Shown: piece after piece, positions 18,073 to 48,229 of the stretch
How positions within the stretch are numbered: the stretch's first letter is position 1
Layout: each line of letters begins with the position of its first letter
Assembly (NCBI RefSeq): GCF_058153355.1
Contig: NZ_CM177019.1
DNA length: 64,000 bases
Reading direction: 5' to 3' (one strand)
Position numbers and translations under genes: made by a program
The notes under the pieces: model-generated
Databases searched by the model: none
Told to the model about the DNA's origin: nothing
Seen by the model: only the letters and a program-made list of their open reading frames with translations

Positions 18073-18336
18073 TTATTTGTACAGTTCAGCCGTAGCGTGC
18101 CAGGTGTCACCGCTACGAGCTTCAGTAATCTGGTAGGCCGTTGCGCCTTTCTCTTCCGCTTTTTTGTTCAGCATTTCACGCATATCCATTGGCGAAGACG
18201 CCACACCACTTACGGATACGGTCCCGATTGCTTCACGATTTTGTGCTTGTGCAGCATCAATGGAGTCGGCAGCGAATGCACCGAAAGAGAGAACAGAAAG
18301 TACGCTTAATGCAGCAACAGTGGTTTTGATTTTCAT
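18073..18336 (-). CDS. yhcN: Stress-induced periplasmic protein YhcN (YdgH/BhsA/McbA family)
   Basis: Canonical start MKIKTTVAALSVLSVLSFGAFA (signal peptide) inside ORF-track frame 18073-18387; 87 aa. Confidence 0.8.
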   Translation of the reverse strand: MKIKTTVAALSVLSVLSFGAFAADSIDAAQAQNREAIGTVSVSGVASSPMDMREMLNKKAEEKGATAYQITEARSGDTWHATAELYK

Positions 18337-18700
18337 GATTTTTACCTCGACATAATCTTTTAGCTGGGCCTTTGTTTCGTGACCCATATCACAAAATCAA
18401 GTATACACTAATTATTGAACTAATTAATACCACGCTAACTGTTTCAGTTGATACTAAGTGTTAAAAGTGTGAGTTTTAATAACAAAAAAGAATTAAAAAC
18501 ACGGTTATTTATTATTAATTCTATTATTTTCAATTAGATAATGAATTTTGCATAATGTGCTTTTTTTAACTCATGTATTCATTATGTGAATGATGTGTCG
18601 CGCTAAAACGCACTATCCGTTAAATTAATCGTAGGAGAAAGCAGGGGGATGAGAGGGAAAAGCAACATTTTCCCCGCCGCCAGAAGCGACGGGGCAGAGA

Positions 18701-29075: not shown

Positions 29076-30443
29076 TTAATAAAATAGCGTGATTGTGGCA
29101 ATCATATTCACCACGAAACCGACTGCCATGGGGATCGCTGTCCGCTTCACCACTGCAAAAGGCGAAACACCTGCAATTCCTGATGTAACGACCACCACCG
29201 CAGTAATCGGCGAAACAGCGCGCGCTAGCGTCGTGGCAAAATGCATCGGCATAATCATTACAACCGCTGGTACATGTAGTCCGGCTGCGATATTCGGAAT
29301 AAGACTGGCAAATGACATAAATGGCGCATTGCCTGAGCCCATCACAATGGCACAAATGGCAATGACCAGCGCCATAATAATCATCACGCCAATACCGCCC
29401 AGACCAGAATGCTCCGCACCCCTGATAACCGCATCGACAGTGCCAATCGTCGTTAAGCCTTTCGCAAATATTTCACCCGCGACCACCAGCGTTACCACGT
29501 TGGCAAACTGCGTACCCATGCCGTCAAAAAACGCCTGCACATCGTCCATTGTTTCGCGCAAGTTATGCTTGCGGAAGAACTCAACAAACATCGTCACCGT
29601 CAAACTCAGTAACATCACCACCACCAGATGCAGTTCTGACTGCATCAGCCCGACGTGGGCGAGGAACAGCGAGCCGAGCATCAGGATTAACGGCATCACC
29701 GGTAAAATGGCGTAATAGAGCGGCGGGACATTATCGAGAGCTTTTTGCTCTGCCTGTTCGTGATTGATATTTTTATCTTTTTTGTCGAAAGCGCGTTGCA
29801 CGAAAAAGTGAGAGATCGCTACCGAGATAATGACGCAAGAGGCGACCGGAAGCTGGTAGTGGAAGAAGTAAGTGGCAATTTTCATTCCTGCCACCTGGGC
29901 CGCAAAAATAGAGTTCGTTTCCAGAATCCCCCACTCAATGGACATCGTGGTTGCGATAACTGCCACCGCAGAGAGTCGACTTACTCCCAGACTCACTAGT
30001 GTTGGAAATAAGGTGACCATCAGCAACATACCCAGACCGGAGGCGCTGGTAATAAACTGCGCCATGATTTGGCCGATAACGTAAGTTGCCGACAGAATAA
30101 GATACGGCGAGCGAATGAGTTTTAACGGGCGGCTTAACAAGCTCACCATCGCCCGACTGGCTCCTATGCGCTCCATGTAGCGGGCATACCCGCCCACCGC
30201 CATAATCGACAACCCTAACCCGGCAATGCGGTTGGACAGCATGCGCAGGATTTCATTATAAATATCGACGATCAAGTAGCCGCTGCTTTTGGCGGGATCG
30301 AGCACACCACCGAACCCTAACCAGACACCGCACATCATCAGGAAGATACCTGCGGCAGCCAGCACCACCTGAGGTTTGTAGTTTTTCAGGATCAAATAGC
30401 CCATCGTAATTAATACGATGACAGATATAATTATGCCGAACAT
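29076..30443 (-). CDS. dcuD: Anaerobic C4-dicarboxylate transporter DcuD (DcuC family)
   Basis: Canonical start [25 protein letters not shown] inside ORF-track frame 29076-30461; 455 aa. Confidence 0.9.
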
Positions 30444-30823
30444 TGTTGAACTCCGTGTCAAAAGAAAACGGTCAATCCCATAAACGGCAGATTGAAAACA
30501 GTGATGTTATATTTTTTGCAAGGCTATTTATGGTGTTGGTGTCGTATTTTTTAATTCTGGATGAGGCAATTTTTCATTATAAAATATGCATTTATGATTA
30601 TTTTGTAAGAACATGTTCGTAATATTCATAATGCTTGTGAATAGTCTTATGAATAATTCATTCAGGATGTTTTTATCTGCGTTACACTAATTTTTCGCAA
30701 TAGTTAATTATTCAGTTAATTATAGTAATGATGAGGCACAAAGAGAAAATCCCGCCATTTCCCCCTACTTTCAATCCTGTGATAGGATGTCACTGATGAT
30801 GTTAATCACACTGACCTTACAGA

Positions 30824-38848: not shown

Positions 38849-41800
38849 TTACTGCGCCTGCACGCGCAACTCTGCTGCGCTACGACTACGGTGACCCAGC
38901 AGTGCTTTTACATCACTGGACTTCGGTTTAACCAGCGCGAATTTCGTGGCGAAGGTTGACCAGTTCGCCAGAATCTCTTCACCGCGCTGGGAACCGGTAT
39001 GCTGCACATGCTCGGTGATAAGACCACGCAGATGCTCTTCATGGATCGCCAAATCGTCAACGCTTAAGACCTCGACCAGTTCCGGGTTAACGCGTTTGCG
39101 GAAATCGCCGCTTTCATCGAGAACGTAAGCGAAGCCGCCGGTCATGCCCGCGCCGAAGTTAACGCCGGTTTTACCCAGAATACAGACAATACCGCCCGTC
39201 ATATATTCACAGCCGTTGTCGCCAATGCCTTCTACCACGGTGATAGCACCGGAGTTCCGCACGCCGAAACGTTCACCCGCGCGGCCTGCGGCATACAGAC
39301 GACCACCGGTCGCGCCATACAGGCAGGTGTTGCCGATAATGCTTGCTTCATGGCTGCGGAAGGCGGAACCAACCGGAGGACGAATGGCGATTAAGCCGCC
39401 CGCCATGCCTTTACCGACATAGTCGTTGGCATCACCGGTCAGGTACAGTTCCACGCCGCCCGCGTTCCACACACCGAAGCTCTGGCCTGCGGTGCCGTTG
39501 AAGTACGCTTTGATCGGATCGGCTGCCAGACCCTGATCGCCGTGCGTCTGAGCGATATAGCCTGAAAGCGACGCGCCGACAGAACGGTCGGTGTTGCGAA
39601 TATCGAACCAGAAGGTTTTGCTCTGACGCTCATCGACAAACGGTTTTGCCTGTTGCAGCAACTGCGCGTTCAGCAGGCCATTATCAAACGGCGGGTTGTT
39701 TTCGGTACAGTAGAGCGCCTTACCTGGATGCGGCTCGGCAGTCTCCAGCAGCTTCGACAGCGCCAGTTTCTGCTGTTTGGCGGTGAAACCGTCCAGCTCT
39801 TTGAGCAGGTCGGTACGGCCAATCAGATCCACCAGGCGCGTTACGCCCAGTTGCGCCATCAGCTCGCGGGTTTCACGGGCGATAAACTCAAAGTAATTGG
39901 TCACTTTGAACGGCAGGCCGTGATAGTGATTCTTACGCAGCTTGTCATCCTGAGTTGCTACACCGGTGGCGCAGTTGTTCAGATGGCAGATTCGCAGGTA
40001 TTTACAGCCGAGCGCCACCATCGGGCCAGTGCCGAAGCCGAAGCTTTCTGCGCCGAGAATCGCCGCTTTGATGATATCGACACCTGTTTTCAGGCCGCCA
40101 TCGACCTGCAAACGGATCTTATGACGCAAGCCGTTGGCAACCAGCGCCTGTTGTGTTTCAACAAGCCCCAGTTCCCACGGGCAGCCTGCGTATTTCACCG
40201 ATGAAAGCGGACTTGCGCCGGTGCCGCCGTCATAGCCTGCGATGGTGATCAAGTCCGCATAAGCTTTCGCCACGCCAGTCGCGATGGTGCCAACGCCCGG
40301 TTCAGAAACCAGCTTCACGGAGATCATCGCTTTCGGGTTAACCTGCTTGAGGTCGAAAATGAGCTGCGCTAAGTCCTCGATAGAGTAGATATCATGGTGC
40401 GGCGGCGGAGAGATCAGCGTCACTCCGGGCACCGAATAGCGCAGTTTGGCGATGTAAGGAGTGACTTTATCGCCCGGCAACTGACCGCCTTCGCCCGGTT
40501 TCGCGCCCTGGGCGACTTTAATCTGAATGACGTCAGCATTGACCAGGTACGCCGGAGTAACGCCGAAGCGACCAGAAGCCACCTGCTTGATGCGCGACAC
40601 TTTGTTAGTGCCGTAGCGCGCCGGATCTTCACCACCTTCACCGGAGTTCGAGTTACCGCCGATGCTATTCATCGCTTCCGCCAGCGCCTCGTGGGCTTCC
40701 GGGCTTAACGCGCCGATAGACATCGCAGCGGTATCGAAGCGTTTAAACAGTTCGCTTGCCGGTTCAACATCGGCAATGTTGACTGCGTTTTCACCCGGCG
40801 TAATTGCCAGCAGATCGCGCAGCGTGGTTGCCGGACGCTCATTAACCAGCTTCGCGTATTCCTGATAGTCGCTGTACTCGCCGCTTTGTACCGCCTGTTG
40901 CAGTGTGCGCACGACGTCCGGGTTGTAGGCGTGGTATTCGCCACCGTGCACGTATTTCAGCAAGCCGCCCTGGCTGATGGGCTTACGCGCCAGCCAGGCA
41001 CGTTTCGACAGATTCAGCAGATCCTGCTGGAAGTCTTCAAAGCTTGCCCCACCAATGCGGCTAACCGCGCCCTGGAAGCACAGGCCCACTACATCATCGT
41101 GCAGACCGACCGCTTCAAACAGTTTCGAGCCGCGGTAAGACGCGATGGTGGAGATGCCCATTTTGGACATGATTTTGTACAAGCCTTTGTTGATGCCGTT
41201 ACGGTAGTTGAGCATCACGGTACGATAATCTTTGGCAATCGCGTGGGTGTCTACCAGGCGGCCCAGCGTTTCATAGGCCAGGTACGGATAAATAGCCGTC
41301 GCGCCGAAGCCCAGCAACACGGCGAAGTGGTGCGGGTCGCGGGCGCTGGCGGTTTCGACGATGATATTGGCATCGCAACGCAGGCTTTGATCGACCAGAC
41401 GAGTCTGGATCGCGCCAACCGCCATCAGAGCCGGAACCGGCAGGCGATCTTTAGCGATATTCCGGTCAGAAAGCACCAGCAGCACGGTGCCGCTACGCAC
41501 CATCTGCTCTGCTTTGTCGCACAGCTCTTTGACCGTCGCTTCGAGCGTGGTTTTAGTGACGTCAAAGGTGATATCCAGCGTATTTGCGCGGTAGTGCTCC
41601 TCTTTCATCGTCGTGAGCTGTTTGAAATCGGAGTAGAGCAGAATCGGCGATTTAAAGCTTAAACGGTGCGCCTGGCCTTCTGCTTCACAGAAGACGTTCA
41701 TTTCACGCCCGATGCTGGTGGCGAGCGACATAACATGCGCTTCACGTAGCGGGTCGATTGGCGGGTTAGTGACCTGCGCAAACTGCTGGCGGAAGTAGTC

Positions 41801-43402
41801 GTAAATAATGCGCGGCTGGCTGGAGAGCACGGCGAATGGGGTATCATCGCCCATCGAACCGACGGCTTCCTGACCGTTTTCACCCAGTACGCGAATTACG
41901 GAGTCCAGCTCTTCCGCGCTGTAGTTAAACTGTTTCTGGTAGCTGGCAAGTGTGTCGTCGTCCAGTTCGCGGCTACCCACTTCTTCATCGGGCAGATCTT
42001 CAAACGGTACCAGACGGCGGACGTTTTTCTCCATCCACTCTTTATATGGATGGCGGCTTTTCAGATCGTCATCGGTTTCTGCCGAGTGCAGAATACGCCC
42101 ACTGCGGGTGTCGATAACCATTAGTTCGCCTGGCCCCACGCGGCCTTTTTCGACTACTTCGTCAGGCTGATAATCCCAGATACCGACTTCAGAGGCGCAG
42201 GTGATGAGCTTATCTTTGGTGATGACGTAGCGCGCCGGACGCAGACCGTTACGGTCGAGGTTACAGGCAGCAAAACGACCATCGGACATTACGATGCCCG
42301 CCGGGCCATCCCACGGCTCCATATGCATGGAGTTAAAGTCGAAGAACGCGCGCAGCTCCGGGTCCATATCCGGGTTGTTCTGCCAGGCGGGTGGCACTAA
42401 CAGACGCATGGCGCGGATGATATCCATCCCGCCCGCCAGCAGCAGTTCCAGCATGTTATCCATGGAACTGGAGTCAGAGCCGGTTTCGTTGACGAACGGC
42501 GCGGCGTCGTGCAGGTCAGGGATCAGCGGTGTCTGGAATTTATAGGTACGCGCTCGCGCCCATTGGCGGTTACCGGTGATGGTGTTGATTTCACCGTTAT
42601 GCGCCAGGTAGCGGAACGGCTGCGCCAGCGGCCAGCGCGGTACGGTATTAGTGGAGAAGCGCTGGTGGAACAGGCAGATGGCCGATTCCAGACGCAGGTC
42701 CGCGAGGTCCAGGTAGAAGCGCGGCAGATCCGCCGGCATACACAGACCTTTATAGATGTTCACCAGATTCGACAGGCTACAGACGTAGAAGTCTTTGTCA
42801 GCTTCGAGACGCTTTTCAATACGGCGGCGGGCGATAAACAGACGGCGCTCCATATCGCGCGGACGCCAACCTGCCGGGGCGTTCACAAAAATTTGCTCAA
42901 TGCGTGGCAGAGAGGAGAGGGCGATTTCACCCAGCACGCCTTCGTTAGTGGGGACATCACGCCAGCCGACAATCGACAACGTTTCGCGTTGCAGCTCTTC
43001 TTCAACGATGCGGCGTGCGGTCGCGGCGAGTTCAGGATCTTTATTCAGGAAAAGCATCCCGACGGCGTAGTTTTTCGCTAAACGCCAGCCTCGCTCCTGC
43101 GCAACAATGCGAAAAAAGCGATCCGGTTTTTGTAACAGCAAGCCGCAACCGTCACCGGTTTTACCATCGGCGAGAATCGCGCCACGGTGCTGCATGCGGG
43201 CCAGTGCGTGTATTGCAGTACGCACTACCTTGTGGCTAGGTTCGCCTTCTATGTGGGCGATCAGGCCGAAACCACAGTTATCCCTCTCAAGGGATTTATC
43301 GTACAACATATCGTGAACCTCCCCCAGGCTCTGCGGGAACCCCACTTCCGAACCGCTGCGCACGGGCACAGAAAGAGCGTGGCGACGGGGTTTGCGTTTC
43401 AT
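38849..43402 (-). CDS. gltB: Glutamate synthase (NADPH) large subunit
   Basis: ORF-track frame 38849-43417; start taken at [17 protein letters not shown] (1517 aa); propeptide precedes the [11 protein letters not shown] amidotransferase N-terminus. Confidence 0.93.
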
Positions 43403-43984
43403 ACGCGCGCCTCGCATTCGCCCCCTTGTTGTCCTTTTCGCATCGATTAATACGGTGAAGAGGGGATCTCAATTACTGCATAAATATGATGAGCAGGCTG
43501 CTCATCCAGAAAGCTTCCAGCGGATTTCCAACTTATCGGGAAAGCTGATACAGGTCAAATGGCAAGCTTATTGGTACAGAAATGTGCTTTAGCGCAAAAT
43601 TCTTTATTAATTTATTGAAATTAAAAAGGATTTGTTAATTAAGTTGAAAAGAGGCGTCGTTAGGGAAACAGTCAATTCCTGACTGTCATAAAGGCGTGTT
43701 AACCCTTATCCTGCCTTGAACTGACGAGAAAGGCAGTATTTTATACTGCATTAATTGGTAATGACGTTTCATGCTACTGTTTTTTGCCTAAAATCCATAA
43801 GGAGATAAAAAAATCTGACACAAGATAAGCAAAAGTGATTTATGTGATTATGCATGAAATTTCGGTAATTTTGATTGATTATGCAATTGATAAAAGCAGG
43901 CTGGGACGATTGATCCAGGTCATCGCCGAATTGAGCTAAAAATGGCAGGCTTTGGCCTCTTTTCAAGGCGCGGTCTATCAGATT

Positions 43985-44914
43985 ATGCAGTTACAGAAAT
44001 TAGTCAATATGTTTGGTGGTGATCTCACCCGTCGTTATGGGCAAAAGGTGCATAAGCTGACGCTGCACGGCGGTTTTAGCTGCCCTAACCGTGACGGTAC
44101 CATCGGGCGTGGTGGCTGCACATTCTGTAATGTTGCCTCGTTTGCCGATGAAGCGCAGCAGCATCATTCCATTGCCGAGCAACTGGCGCACCAGGCGAAT
44201 TTAGTTAACCGCGCTAAACGCTATCTGGCCTACTTTCAGGCGTATACCAGCACCTTTGCGGAAGTTCAGGTGCTGCGTTCTATGTATCAGCAGGCGGTGA
44301 GCCAGGCCAATATTGTCGGTTTGTGTGTTGGTACCCGCCCGGACTGCGTGCCGGATGCGGTGCTGGATCTGCTTTGCGAATATAAGGACCAGGGCTACGA
44401 AGTGTGGCTGGAGCTGGGGCTACAAACCGCCCACGACAAAACGCTGCATCGCATCAATCGCGGTCATGATTTTGCCTGCTATCAGCGCACGACGCAGCTG
44501 GCGCGTGAGCGCGGGCTGAAGGTGTGTTCTCACTTAATTGTCGGCCTGCCTGGCGAAGGGCAGGCTGAATGTTTGCAAACGCTGGAGCGAGTGGTTGAAA
44601 CCGGCGTGGACGGCATAAAGCTGCATCCGCTACATATAGTAAAAGGCAGCATTATGGCGAAAGCCTGGGAAGCGGGGCGTTTGAACGGTATTGAACTGGA
44701 CGATTACACGCTCACTGCCGGAGAAATGATTCGCCATACGCCACCGGAAGTGATCTACCACCGCATTTCCGCCAGCGCCCGTCGCCCGACGCTGCTTGCT
44801 CCGCTGTGGTGCGAAAATCGATGGACGGGAATGGTCGAGCTGGATCGCTATCTGAATGAACATGGCGTACAGGGATCGGCGCTGGGACGTCCGTGGCTAC
44901 CTCCAACGGCGTAG
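43985..44914 (+). CDS. yhcC: Radical SAM protein YhcC
   Basis: Canonical start MQLQKLVNMFGGDLTRRYGQKVHKLTLHGGFSCPNRDGT inside ORF-track frame 43952-44914; CxxxCxxC-type cluster motif. Confidence 0.85.
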   Translation: MQLQKLVNMFGGDLTRRYGQKVHKLTLHGGFSCPNRDGTIGRGGCTFCNVASFADEAQQHHSIAEQLAHQANLVNRAKRYLAYFQAYTSTFAEVQVLRSMYQQAVSQANIVGLCVGTRPDCVPDAVLDLLCEYKDQGYEVWLELGLQTAHDKTLHRINRGHDFACYQRTTQLARERGLKVCSHLIVGLPGEGQAECLQTLERVVETGVDGIKLHPLHIVKGSIMAKAWEAGRLNGIELDDYTLTAGEMIRHTPPEVIYHRISASARRPTLLAPLWCENRWTGMVELDRYLNEHGVQGSALGRPWLPPTA

Positions 44915-45009
44915 GCCATTGAGGGGAATTCCGCATTTCTCACACAATTTATAACGTAACTGTCAGAATTGGGTATTATTGGGGCAGGTTGTCGTGAAGG
45001 AATTCCCTA

Positions 45010-47346
45010 ATGAAGCAAATTCGTCTGCTGGCGCAGTATTATGTTGACCTGATGATGAAGTTAGGTCTGGTGCGCTTCTCAATGTTGCTGGCGCTGGCCC
45101 TCGTCGTTCTTGCCATTGTGGTACAAATGGCAGTGACCATGGTGCTGCATGGTCAGGTCGAAAGCATTGATGTTATTCGTTCTATCTTCTTTGGTTTGCT
45201 GATTACGCCGTGGGCGGTCTACTTTCTATCGGTGGTCGTTGAGCAATTGGAGGAGTCACGACAACGTCTGTCACGGCTGGTGCAAAAACTGGAGGAGATG
45301 CGCGAGCGCGATTTGAGCCTCAACGTTCAGTTAAAAGATAATATTGCCCAGCTAAATCAGGAAATTGCCGTTCGTGAAAAAGCGGAAGCAGAACTGCAGG
45401 AAACCTTCGGCCAACTGAAAATTGAAATTAAAGAGCGCGAAGAGACACAAATTCAGCTCGAGCAGCAATCCTCATTCTTACGTTCCTTCCTTGATGCTTC
45501 ACCCGACCTGGTTTTTTATCGTAACGAAGATAAAGAGTTTTCCGGCTGTAACCGCGCGATGGAGCTGCTGACCGGAAAAAGCGAAAAACAACTGGTTCAT
45601 TTAAAACCTGCTGATGTTTACTCGCCGGAAGCTGCCGCGAAAGTTATTGAAACCGATGAAAAAGTATTTCGTCATAATGTGTCTCTGACCTATGAACAGT
45701 GGTTGGATTATCCCGACGGACGCAAAGCCTGCTTTGAAATCCGTAAAGTGCCGTACTATGACCGCGTGGGTAAACGTCACGGTTTAATGGGTTTTGGTCG
45801 CGACATTACCGAGCGTAAGCGGTATCAGGATGCGCTTGAACGCGCCAGCCGCGACAAAACGACGTTTATCTCCACCATCAGTCACGAATTGCGTACACCG
45901 CTGAACGGTATCGTCGGCCTGAGCCGCATTTTGCTGGATACTGAACTTACCGCTGAGCAGGAAAAATATCTCAAAACAATCCATGTTTCGGCCGTCACGC
46001 TGGGGAATATCTTCAACGATATTATTGACATGGATAAGATGGAGCGGCGCAAGGTCCAGCTTGATAATCAGCCAGTTGATTTCACCAGCTTCCTTGCCGA
46101 TCTGGAAAATCTCTCCGCATTGCAGGCGCAACAGAAAGGGTTGCGCTTTAATCTGGAACCGACGCTGCCATTACCGCATCAGGTCATTACTGATGGGACG
46201 CGTTTACGGCAGATCCTGTGGAACCTCATCAGTAACGCCGTCAAATTTACCCAGCAGGGCCAGGTTACCGTGCGCGTGCGCTACGATGAAGGCGATATGC
46301 TGCATTTTGAAGTGGAAGACTCTGGTATCGGCATTCCGCAGGATGAGCTGGATAAAATCTTCGCCATGTATTACCAGGTGAAAGACAGTCATGGCGGTAA
46401 ACCTGCCACTGGCACCGGTATTGGTCTGGCCGTTTCTCGTCGTCTGGCGAAAAATATGGGCGGCGATATTACGGTTACCAGCGAACAGGGCAAAGGTTCA
46501 ACCTTTACGTTGACGATCCACGCACCGTCGGTAGCAGAAGAGGTTGATGATGCGTTTGATGAAGACGATATGCCTTTACCGGCGCTGAATGTGCTGCTGG
46601 TGGAAGACATTGAACTGAACGTGATTGTCGCACGCTCTGTGCTGGAAAAATTAGGTAACAGCGTTGATGTCGCCATGACCGGCAAGGCGGCGCTGGAGAT
46701 GTTTAAACCGGGCGAATACGACCTGGTGTTGCTGGATATTCAGTTGCCAGATATGACCGGGCTGGATATCTCTCGTGAACTGACGAAGCGTTATCCGCGC
46801 GAGGATTTACCGCCGCTGGTGGCCTTAACCGCTAACGTGCTGAAAGACAAACAAGAGTACCTCAATGCTGGAATGGATGATGTGCTGAGTAAGCCGCTTT
46901 CTGTTCCGGCGCTAACCGCGATGATCAAGAAATTCTGGGATACCCAGGATGATGAGGAGAGTACGGTGACGACAGAAGAGAACAGTAAATCAGAAGCATT
47001 GCTCGATATTCCCATGCTGGAACAGTATCTCGAACTTGTAGGACCGAAGCTGATCACCGATGGGTTAGCGGTGTTTGAGAAGATGATGCCGGGATATGTC
47101 AGCGTGCTGGAGTCGAATCTGACGGCGCAGGATAAAAAAGGCATTGTTGAGGAAGGACATAAAATTAAAGGTGCGGCGGGGTCAGTGGGGTTACGCCATC
47201 TGCAACAGCTGGGTCAGCAAATTCAGTCTCCTGACCTTCCAGCCTGGGAAGATAACGTCGGTGAATGGATTGAAGAGATGAAAGAAGAGTGGCGTCACGA
47301 CGTAGAAGTACTGAAAGCGTGGGTGGCAAAAGCTACTAAAAAATGA
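45010..47346 (+). CDS. arcB: Aerobic respiration control sensor kinase ArcB (tripartite hybrid kinase)
   Basis: 778-aa ORF with two TM helices, PAS, HisKA (SHELRTPLNGI), receiver and HPt domains. Confidence 0.95.
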   Translation: MKQIRLLAQYYVDLMMKLGLVRFSMLLALALVVLAIVVQMAVTMVLHGQVESIDVIRSIFFGLLITPWAVYFLSVVVEQLEESRQRLSRLVQKLEEMRERDLSLNVQLKDNIAQLNQEIAVREKAEAELQETFGQLKIEIKEREETQIQLEQQSSFLRSFLDASPDLVFYRNEDKEFSGCNRAMELLTGKSEKQLVHLKPADVYSPEAAAKVIETDEKVFRHNVSLTYEQWLDYPDGRKACFEIRKVPYYDRVGKRHGLMGFGRDITERKRYQDALERASRDKTTFISTISHELRTPLNGIVGLSRILLDTELTAEQEKYLKTIHVSAVTLGNIFNDIIDMDKMERRKVQLDNQPVDFTSFLADLENLSALQAQQKGLRFNLEPTLPLPHQVITDGTRLRQILWNLISNAVKFTQQGQVTVRVRYDEGDMLHFEVEDSGIGIPQDELDKIFAMYYQVKDSHGGKPATGTGIGLAVSRRLAKNMGGDITVTSEQGKGSTFTLTIHAPSVAEEVDDAFDEDDMPLPALNVLLVEDIELNVIVARSVLEKLGNSVDVAMTGKAALEMFKPGEYDLVLLDIQLPDMTGLDISRELTKRYPREDLPPLVALTANVLKDKQEYLNAGMDDVLSKPLSVPALTAMIKKFWDTQDDEESTVTTEENSKSEALLDIPMLEQYLELVGPKLITDGLAVFEKMMPGYVSVLESNLTAQDKKGIVEEGHKIKGAAGSVGLRHLQQLGQQIQSPDLPAWEDNVGEWIEEMKEEWRHDVEVLKAWVAKATKK

Positions 47347-47458
47347 CCCCGGCTAGACCGGGGTGCGCGAATACTGCGCCAACACCAGGGAAATCTTGGC
47401 TGCGCCGTAAATTATTATGATGAGTTACAAGGGCACAGCACTGTTTTTCAGGCCGCAC
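47338..47458 (-). ncRNA. arcZ: ArcZ small RNA (RyhA/SraH), Hfq-dependent
   Basis: Minus strand reads gtgcggcctgaaaaacagtgctgtgcccttgtaactcatcataataatttacggcgcagccaagatttccctggtgttggcgcagtattcgcgcaccccggtctagccggggtcatttttt, matching the ArcZ sequence as recalled; terminator hairpin and U-run overlap the last arcB codons. Confidence 0.85.
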
Positions 47459-47575
47459 GCAGTTAAGATAGCAAAACTTAAATGATTTGTTACATGAATC
47501 AGTTAAATGTGTGATGCGTAGCATTTTTATTAAAAAAATTAATGTGTTTCAGTCAATTGCGAAAGGATGATCACA

Positions 47576-48229
47576 ATGAAGAAAATTGGCGTAATTCTGA
47601 GCGGATGCGGCGTCTATGACGGTTCTGAAATTCATGAAGCGGTGTTGACGTTGTTAGCTATTTCACGCAGCGGTGCGCAGGCGGTCTGCTTTGCACCGGA
47701 TAAGCAGCAGGTTGATGTTATCAACCATTTAACTGGCGAAGCGATGACGGAAACGCGCAATGTGCTGATTGAAGCGGCACGAATAACGCGCGGTGAAATC
47801 CGTCCTCTGGCTCAGGCCGATGCCGCTGAACTGGATGCGTTGATTGTGCCGGGGGGGTTTGGCGCGGCGAAGAATTTAAGCAATTTTGCCAGTCTTGGTA
47901 GCGAATGCACCGTTGACCGTGAATTAAAGGCGCTGGCACAAGCGATGCATCAGGCCGGAAAACCGCTTGGTTTTATGTGTATTGCCCCGGCGATGCTGCC
48001 GAAAATTTTCGATTTCCCGCTGCGTTTGACCATCGGTACTGATATCGATACCGCAGAAGTGCTGGAAGAGATGGGCGCGGAGCATGTGCCGTGTCCTGTC
48101 GATGATATCGTGGTTGATGAAGACAATAAGATTGTCACCACCCCGGCATATATGCTTGCGCAGAACATTGCAGAAGCGGCGAGCGGCATTGATAAGCTGG
48201 TTTCCCGCGTGCTGGTTCTGACTGAATGA
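47576..48229 (+). CDS. elbB: DJ-1/PfpI-family protein ElbB (YhbL)
   Basis: Canonical start [26 protein letters not shown] inside ORF-track frame 47567-48229; 217 aa. Confidence 0.85.

Follow-up and report, generated by a model that had tools for sequence, protein, structure and literature searches.

A shared regulatory region of fixed geometry between gltBDF and yhcC, with a transcribed gltB leader as a candidate RNA element

Analysis of a 64,000-nucleotide stretch of DNA (hereafter the window; contig NZ_CM177019.1 of RefSeq assembly GCF_058153355.1) indicates that the AT-rich gap separating gltB from yhcC is, very probably, the regulatory region that the divergent gltBDF and yhcC units share and that is organized as a nucleoprotein scaffold of fixed geometry. 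The sites, their conservation and their spacing can be read directly in the window, and they would be expected from their sequence to act in this strain as they do in K-12 and O157 DNA, where others have demonstrated binding and regulatory effects experimentally. The region is already known and ranks with the most thoroughly characterised promoters of E. coli, and its confirmation adds nothing new; the only element of the gap for which we found no prior description is the transcribed leader of gltB, which is a modest lead and not a result.

Two genes that point away from each other flank the gap, an arrangement that had been proposed in a first-pass annotation and that agrees with both the open reading frames and the RefSeq annotation; arcB lies downstream of yhcC. 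The boundaries are as follows:

38849-43309, minus strand: gltB coding region, starting at ATG 43309 and encoding 1486 aa (RefSeq annotation for K-12 and for the closest strain)
43310-43526, minus strand: gltB 5' leader, about 216 nt, its start taken from the primers and numbering of PMC1784095
43985-44914, plus strand: yhcC (mnmL), radical SAM tRNA-modification enzyme (RefSeq annotation; function from PMC13228596)

The extent of about 580 bp (43403-43984) given in the first-pass annotation is exact at its right edge, where yhcC opens with the ATG at 43985, but its left edge was set by an obsolete gltB start codon at 43402, from which a 1517-aa GltB would be read. In a comparison that covered about 30 enterobacterial genera with 74 distinct sequences, 10 keep this ATG and 48 carry an in-frame stop inside the 31 extra codons. 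Moreover, the distance between a conserved anchor and ATG 43309 falls in all three frames across relatives, showing that the two ATGs do not stay in frame with each other. The GltB N-terminus MLYDKSLE[RK]DNCGFG was found in 77 loci, and a GGGGAGG Shine-Dalgarno sequence 8 nt upstream of it is universal. Because ATG 43402 is unconserved and the MLYDKSLE start is universal, the non-coding gap proper runs from 43310 to 43984 (675 bp), with the leader occupying 43310-43526.

At the opposite edge, YhcC has been described in a 2026 preprint (PMC13228596) as taking over MnmC oxidase activity in mnm5s2U tRNA modification under anaerobiosis. Newer PGAP records name the gene mnmL (tRNA modification radical SAM protein MnmL/YtqA), and older records still label its product an uncharacterised TIGR01212 protein. 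Further along the same side of the window, the ArcZ small RNA is encoded at 47351-47458 on the minus strand, just downstream of arcB as in K-12 (RF00081, 120.8 bits, E = 3e-28).

The composition of the gap is as unusual as had been claimed: the 582 bp of 43403-43984 have a G+C fraction of 0.395, compared with 0.519 across the full 64-kb window, and contain 13 A/T tracts of 4 bases or more, compared with 6.6 +/- 2.3 in shuffled sequences. Only 1.2% of equal-size windows are at least as AT-rich, and the core of the region (43560-43900) falls to 0.328. Islands of this kind number three in the 64 kb, the other two lying at about 18.2 kb and about 30.4 kb. These two (about 18100-18450 and 30250-30600) have 400-bp G+C minima of 0.325 and 0.312, and are at least as AT-rich as the gltB-yhcC gap. 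The leftmost stretch of the original interval, about 120 bp at 43403-43526, is not AT-rich (G+C about 0.47-0.55); it is transcribed gltB leader. The window is E. coli DNA: of 5426 complete genomes of this species, 5416 contain the segment 43350-44050 and the other 10 have no match, and one E. coli record carries a second copy on a plasmid.

The gltBDF promoter has been dissected by Ernsting, Wiese, Paul, Blumenthal and Matthews, and by Paul et al. (2007; PMC1784095) in K-12 and O157. The 2007 study placed an IHF footprint at -75 to -113, three Lrp sites centred at -152, -215 and -246, a repressing Crp site at -76 to -55 (centre -65.5; footprint and mutagenesis) and an ArgR footprint at -361 to -318. 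Its gltP1 and gltP2 primers match the window at 43852-43824 and 43519-43538, respectively; combined with the Crp centre and with fragments named -325 to +8, these matches fix +1 at 43526 +/- 1 on the minus strand. With this reference point, every published element maps onto the gap, the IHF site as a putative one (sites without a strand are given as unstranded):

43531-43559, minus strand: gltBDF sigma-70 core, with -35 TTGACC at 43554-43559, a 17-bp spacer and -10 TAAGTT at 43531-43536; start at about 43526
43580-43601, unstranded: Crp-cAMP site, 16/22 to consensus, about -75 to -54, identical to K-12
43601-43639, unstranded: putative IHF footprint, -75 to -113, range from PMC1784095
43611-43664, unstranded: hypervariable patch, -85 to -138, covering the distal IHF footprint and spacer
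43668-43686, unstranded: Lrp site 1, palindrome ACAGTCAATTCCTGACTGT, published centre -152, a strongly conserved block
43734-43748, unstranded: Lrp site 2, CAGTATTTTATACTG, 14/15 to YAGHAWATTWTDCTR, -222 to -208, centred exactly on -215
43762-43786, unstranded, borders approximate: Lrp site 3 region, published centre -246 (about 43772), with a conserved CTGTTTTTTG run
43824-43840, unstranded: conserved block GATAAGCAAAAGTGAT, with no assigned regulator
43849-43866 and 43870-43887, unstranded: two ARG boxes for ArgR, with 4 and 3 mismatches, -361 to -323, 21 bp apart

Consensus scans for Lrp, IHF, Crp and ArgR were made independently of the published numbers, and their best matches fell on the published positions. 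This outcome upholds the earlier proposal of a multi-regulator gltBD promoter (Lrp, IHF and others), but not the accompanying statement that no specific sites could be called by eye: the sites are callable from sequence, Lrp site 2 matching at 14 of 15 positions. The best IHF consensus match in the window, TTTCAATAAATTA (43608-43620, minus strand, -94 to -82), has one mismatch, compared with two at the same position in K-12 on inspection of the sequences. The sigma-70 core is identical to that of K-12 and its spacing is invariant in 79 aligned sequences, yet a generic promoter scan missed this real promoter, its sole promoter-like match being a chance-level one inside the variable patch. We attribute the miss to the weak -10 element, which fits an activator-dependent promoter.

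For other regulators, consensus scans for a Crp core, Fis and NtrC gave matches at or below chance level, and the scan for Nac gave none. The GATAAGCAAAAGTGAT block does contain ATA-N9-GAT, one mismatch away from ATA-N9-TAT, which we take to be the Nac consensus. Separately, ChIP-seq of MarA in S. Typhimurium has been reported to give a peak in the yhcC<>gltB gap, at the site GCAAACGCTGAAAAA; the equivalent E. coli segment (about 43797-43812) is not conserved.

The organization of these sites extends well beyond E. coli. Retrieval of yhcC loci from one genome per species yielded 80, in 77 of which gltB is the divergent neighbor, and 79 sequences were aligned for comparison. Across the 77 loci, from about 30 genera, the gap measures 656-688 bp and its blocks occur in the same order. 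The conserved blocks are the leader, the core promoter, the promoter-proximal half of the Crp site (the only half of that site conserved across genera), Lrp site 1, parts of Lrp sites 2 and 3, the ARG boxes, the FNR site discussed below and the GATAAGCAAAAGTGAT block. Several spacings are the same in all 79 sequences: 29 bp from the -35 element to the Crp half, 61 bp from Lrp site 1 to Lrp site 2, 27 bp from GATAAGCAAAAGTGAT to ARG box 1 and 21 bp from one ARG box to the other. The Crp half and Lrp site 1 are separated by 94-96 bp of sequence whose conservation is only about 0.4-0.6, indicating that the IHF/spacer segment is constrained in length and free in sequence. Paul et al. found that a 5-bp insertion cuts gltBDF activation 3-7-fold and that a 10-bp insertion does not (PMC1784095); the fixed Crp-Lrp1 length agrees with these data and supports a bending and looping model.

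This comparison also bears on whether the AT-rich stretch might be an inert or horizontally acquired spacer, silenced by an H-NS-type protein and devoid of specific sites. Its low G+C content, its excess of A/T tracts and the freely evolving sequence of -85 to -138 are all what such a spacer might display. A gap that measures 656-688 bp and keeps its order of blocks throughout about 30 genera, spacings fixed to within 1 bp and sites that have been footprinted in the literature are not, and we regard the idea as scarcely credible. The lineage-restricted presence expected of an H-NS-silenced island is likewise not what was found, since the gap is present in 77 of 77 loci and its blocks are conserved. 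Among the sequences collected, CACSKA010000008.1 (L071), titled Chryseobacterium sp. 18061, has an Enterobacteriaceae-type yhcC-gltB locus with 90% YhcC identity and the same leader; this assembly is probably mislabelled or contaminated.

Returning to the shared regulatory region, we find that the window differs from K-12 in a sharply localized manner. Overall, the region is 98% identical to that of E. coli K-12 MG1655, and the locus, the core promoter and the relative positions of the Crp, Lrp and ARG-box sites are the same as in K-12 PgltB (PMC1784095). The only ARG-box substitution (43886) sits on an N position of the consensus. Differences from K-12 affect 15 of 71 positions in 43600-43670, compared with 2 of 320 in the stretch to its left, and the distal half of the IHF footprint is among the sequences that differ. 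The window carries a rare haplotype at -85 to -138, together with a few changes in Lrp site 2 and a 1-bp insertion in the T-run at 43780. The patch (43611-43664), together with 43733-43750, is a hot spot of polymorphism within the species: among eight E. coli, 19 of 54 sites vary in the patch, whereas the opening 67 nt of the leader are invariant and the 84 sites of the core promoter and Crp site include a single variable one. Identity to the window over 43560-43800 is at least 99% in 10 E. coli genomes, 95-99% in 6 and 90-95% in 5346, and the haplotype itself (43611-43664 and 43733-43750) occurs in about 10-16 of 5416 complete genomes. A search for its donor gave no match in E. albertii, E. 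whittamii, Escherichia sp. E1V33 or the divergent E. coli E69. Judged by sequence, the divergent IHF footprint and spacer could alter the quantitative behavior of the promoter relative to K-12.

The yhcC half of the gap carries elements of its own. The earlier description of a divergent control region was right about the regulators of gltBDF, and overlooked both the FNR site on this side and the transcribed gltB leader. The features here are:

43905-43928, unstranded: FNR site, core TTGATCCAGGTCAT at 43910-43923, centre 43916.5, about 70 bp upstream of yhcC
43937-43958, plus strand: conserved TAAAAATGGCAGGC block, putative yhcC -10 region, with TG at 43943-43944 and the hexamer at 43946-43951

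Read on the opposite strand, the segment 43905-43928 is identical to the 24-mer CGGCGATGACCTGGATCAATCGTC, which has 2 mismatches to an FNR core (TTGAT-N4-ATCAA-like) and was identified as the in vivo FNR target 'yhcC/gltB' by ChIP-chip (Grainger et al., 2007). Using ChIP-seq and RNA-seq, Myers et al. (2013) classified yhcC as directly activated by FNR, its start point not being known. Consistent with these reports, the 24-bp site is unchanged in the window, with yhcC adjacent, and it is among the best conserved blocks of the 79-sequence alignment and the best one near yhcC. Measured from the gltB start at 43526, the site lies at -390.5, whereas Grainger et al. give -399.5; this discrepancy of 9-10 bp probably reflects different reference start points in the Grainger and Paul papers. 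All 79 sequences place the TAAAAATGGCAGGC block at the same distance, 24 bp, from the FNR centre. If a class II FNR geometry (-41.5) is assumed, yhcC transcription would start near 43958 and the TG would fall at -15/-14; this geometry and start are proposals of the present analysis, in distinction to the published FNR activation. Two other promoter assignments for yhcC were discarded: a sigma-54 reading of TGGCAGGCTTTGGCC, whose -24/-12 spacing does not fit on inspection, and a sigma-70 reading with -35 TTGATC and -10 TAAAAT, whose spacer would be 21 bp.

We turn now to the gltB leader, in which the segment from +1 to +70 and a block adjoining the Shine-Dalgarno sequence (GGGGGAGG, about 43318-43325) are nearly invariant in Enterobacteriaceae across about 30 genera. 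RNAalifold predicts two hairpins:

43488-43506, minus strand: leader hairpin H1, GAUGAGCAGCCUGCUCAUC, +21 to +39
43369-43430, minus strand: leader hairpin P2, with basal stems AAGRG/CUCUU, GGCG/CGCC and GCG.GGY/RCC.CGU and a variable apical stem

In H1, 4 of 8 pairs change on both sides with pairing kept. P2 has the same predicted fold in 55 distinct sequences, its apical stem being GCGU/ACGC, GGCA/UGCC or GGUC/GACC in different sequences, or deleted; the obsolete ATG at 43402 sits in the apical loop. In a MAFFT alignment of the leader, 98.8% of cells pair and 11 pairs covary, compared with 2.4 +/- 1.0 in shuffled alignments and 1-5 in slid controls. A second alignment, built with a covariance model and biased towards the structure to which it was fitted, gives 7 covarying pairs (39 cells) in P2, compared with 3.7 +/- 0.9 (9.4 +/- 2.3 cells) in shuffles and 0-3 pairs in slid controls. 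The minimum free energy of the leader is no better than that of shuffled sequences (z = +0.66; 147 of 200 fold at least as well). A long-range helix is also predicted between the 5' end and the Shine-Dalgarno-proximal block; it displays zero covariation, both of its sides being invariant, and the modeled structure suggests that the Shine-Dalgarno-adjoining block may pair with the 5' end of the leader.

Conservation past the start site could also arise from DNA operators, such as an ARG-box-like element at +35 to +52, rather than from RNA structure. There is an ARG-box-like match at 43475-43492 with 4 mismatches, the amplicon that Cho et al. used for ArgR ChIP qPCR covers 43433-43571, and within the invariant +1 to +70 segment constraint on RNA and constraint on DNA look alike. 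ARG-box matches of this quality are, however, common in AT-rich DNA (36 found compared with 12.7 expected). The compensatory changes in H1 and P2 preserve pairing and not base identity, to the extent that the sequence of the P2 apical stem is fully replaced between genera and still pairs. We therefore consider operators an unlikely source of the leader's conservation.

Nor does the gap appear to hide an unannotated small protein gene, for which there were two candidates, both open in the window and in K-12. The first, a 65-aa frame at 43769-43966 on the minus strand, would start at a TTG that lacks a Shine-Dalgarno sequence. Of 79 sequences, 3 keep this frame intact and 60 are without its start codon, and stops interrupt it at codon 34-35 in E. 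albertii, E. whittamii and Escherichia sp. On these grounds it was rejected as a gene, much as the first-pass annotation, which called it probably spurious, had surmised. The second is a 10-codon upstream frame in the leader, MSSLLIIFMQ (43504-43472, minus strand), which sits where the leader is nearly invariant and whose ATG is preceded, at 8 nt, by GGAAG. In four lineages, this ATG has become ATA, each time with a compensating change that preserves the hairpin; codons 2-5 undergo non-conservative changes that keep base pairing, and codons 6-10 have zero synonymous variation. Because changes keep the hairpin and synonymous variation is lacking, the conservation of this frame has the pattern expected of constraint on RNA or DNA and not of coding, and it was set aside as an attenuation peptide. 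Overall, we judge a hidden small protein gene to be highly improbable.

An independent, Hfq-dependent small RNA has a somewhat better claim. As relayed by a citing paper, Raghavan et al. (2011) observed by RNA-seq a 'yhcC-gltB' intergenic RNA that falls in an hfq mutant and is without a Rho-independent terminator. The leader itself contains a hairpin followed by an AU-rich stretch; this hairpin, H1, was flagged as terminator-like by a simple scan. However, no separate promoter is evident, the K-12 RefSeq record annotates no ncRNA here, and an Rfam 15 scan of 42900-47800 at E-values up to 1 returned only ArcZ and one chance match, with nothing in the leader. The simplest view is that the gltB leader could be the source of the reported RNA, as a fragment that is either stable or ended prematurely, and a separate small RNA gene seems to us doubtful.

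As for what might act on the leader, searches of the literature for the gltB leader, the gltB 5'UTR or Rho-dependent control returned nothing relevant. Ribosome profiling has listed gltB as a candidate translational target of RyhB, and overproduction of OmrA/B lowers GltB and GltD protein, an effect that may be indirect. Leader positions +7 to +14 (CUGGAAGC) are complementary to RyhB 53-60 (GCUUCCAG), about 0.26 such 8-mers being expected by chance; when whole molecules were compared with RNAduplex, shuffled sequences paired as well as RyhB and the leader did. A small RNA such as RyhB might be a partner of the leader, and Hfq is another possibility. Compared with structured enterobacterial leaders such as that of rpoS, the gltB leader is likewise long (about 216 nt) and has hairpins supported by covariation; unlike them, it belongs to no Rfam family, any ligand, small RNA or protein partner is at most a candidate, and its free-energy z-score is unremarkable. 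Taken together, these features permit a tentative suggestion, possible rather than probable as judged from sequence, that the leader is an uncharacterised post-transcriptional control element common to Enterobacteriaceae, whose hairpins and invariant blocks could gate translation or stability of the glutamate synthase mRNA.

In the mechanism that we favor for the region as a whole, the weak sigma-70 promoter (TTGACC-17-TAAGTT, start at about 43526, minus strand) would be switched on more than 30-fold. Activation of gltBDF would need Lrp at three sites 150-250 bp upstream, and a bend induced by IHF at -75 to -113 would bring Lrp to RNA polymerase. Crp-cAMP (-65.5) and ArgR (two ARG boxes, -318 to -361) would trim the promoter down. 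On the opposite side of the gap, FNR bound about 70 bp upstream of yhcC would activate that gene under anaerobiosis, and the leader of about 216 nt, with its conserved hairpins, may provide post-transcriptional control.

Like gltBDF, ilvPG and the pap and fim switches rely on distant activation through DNA bending, AT-rich DNA and helical phasing. The gltBDF promoter differs from them in that Lrp acts from unusually far away (more than 150 bp) and is leucine-insensitive (PMC1784095). The product of the operon contributes to GlnA/GltBD, one of two main routes of ammonia assimilation; by one estimate, this pathway takes about 15% of the ATP turned over in glucose minimal medium (PMC1784095).

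The gltBDF control region is a classic example of a single promoter on which several global regulators converge, and its phylogenetic footprint indicates that between the Crp and Lrp sites it is geometry, and not sequence, that enterobacteria have conserved. The rare natural haplotype of the window falls exactly in the IHF/spacer segment and thus constitutes ready-made material for allele swaps, and the long gltB leader bears signs of both purifying selection and RNA structure.
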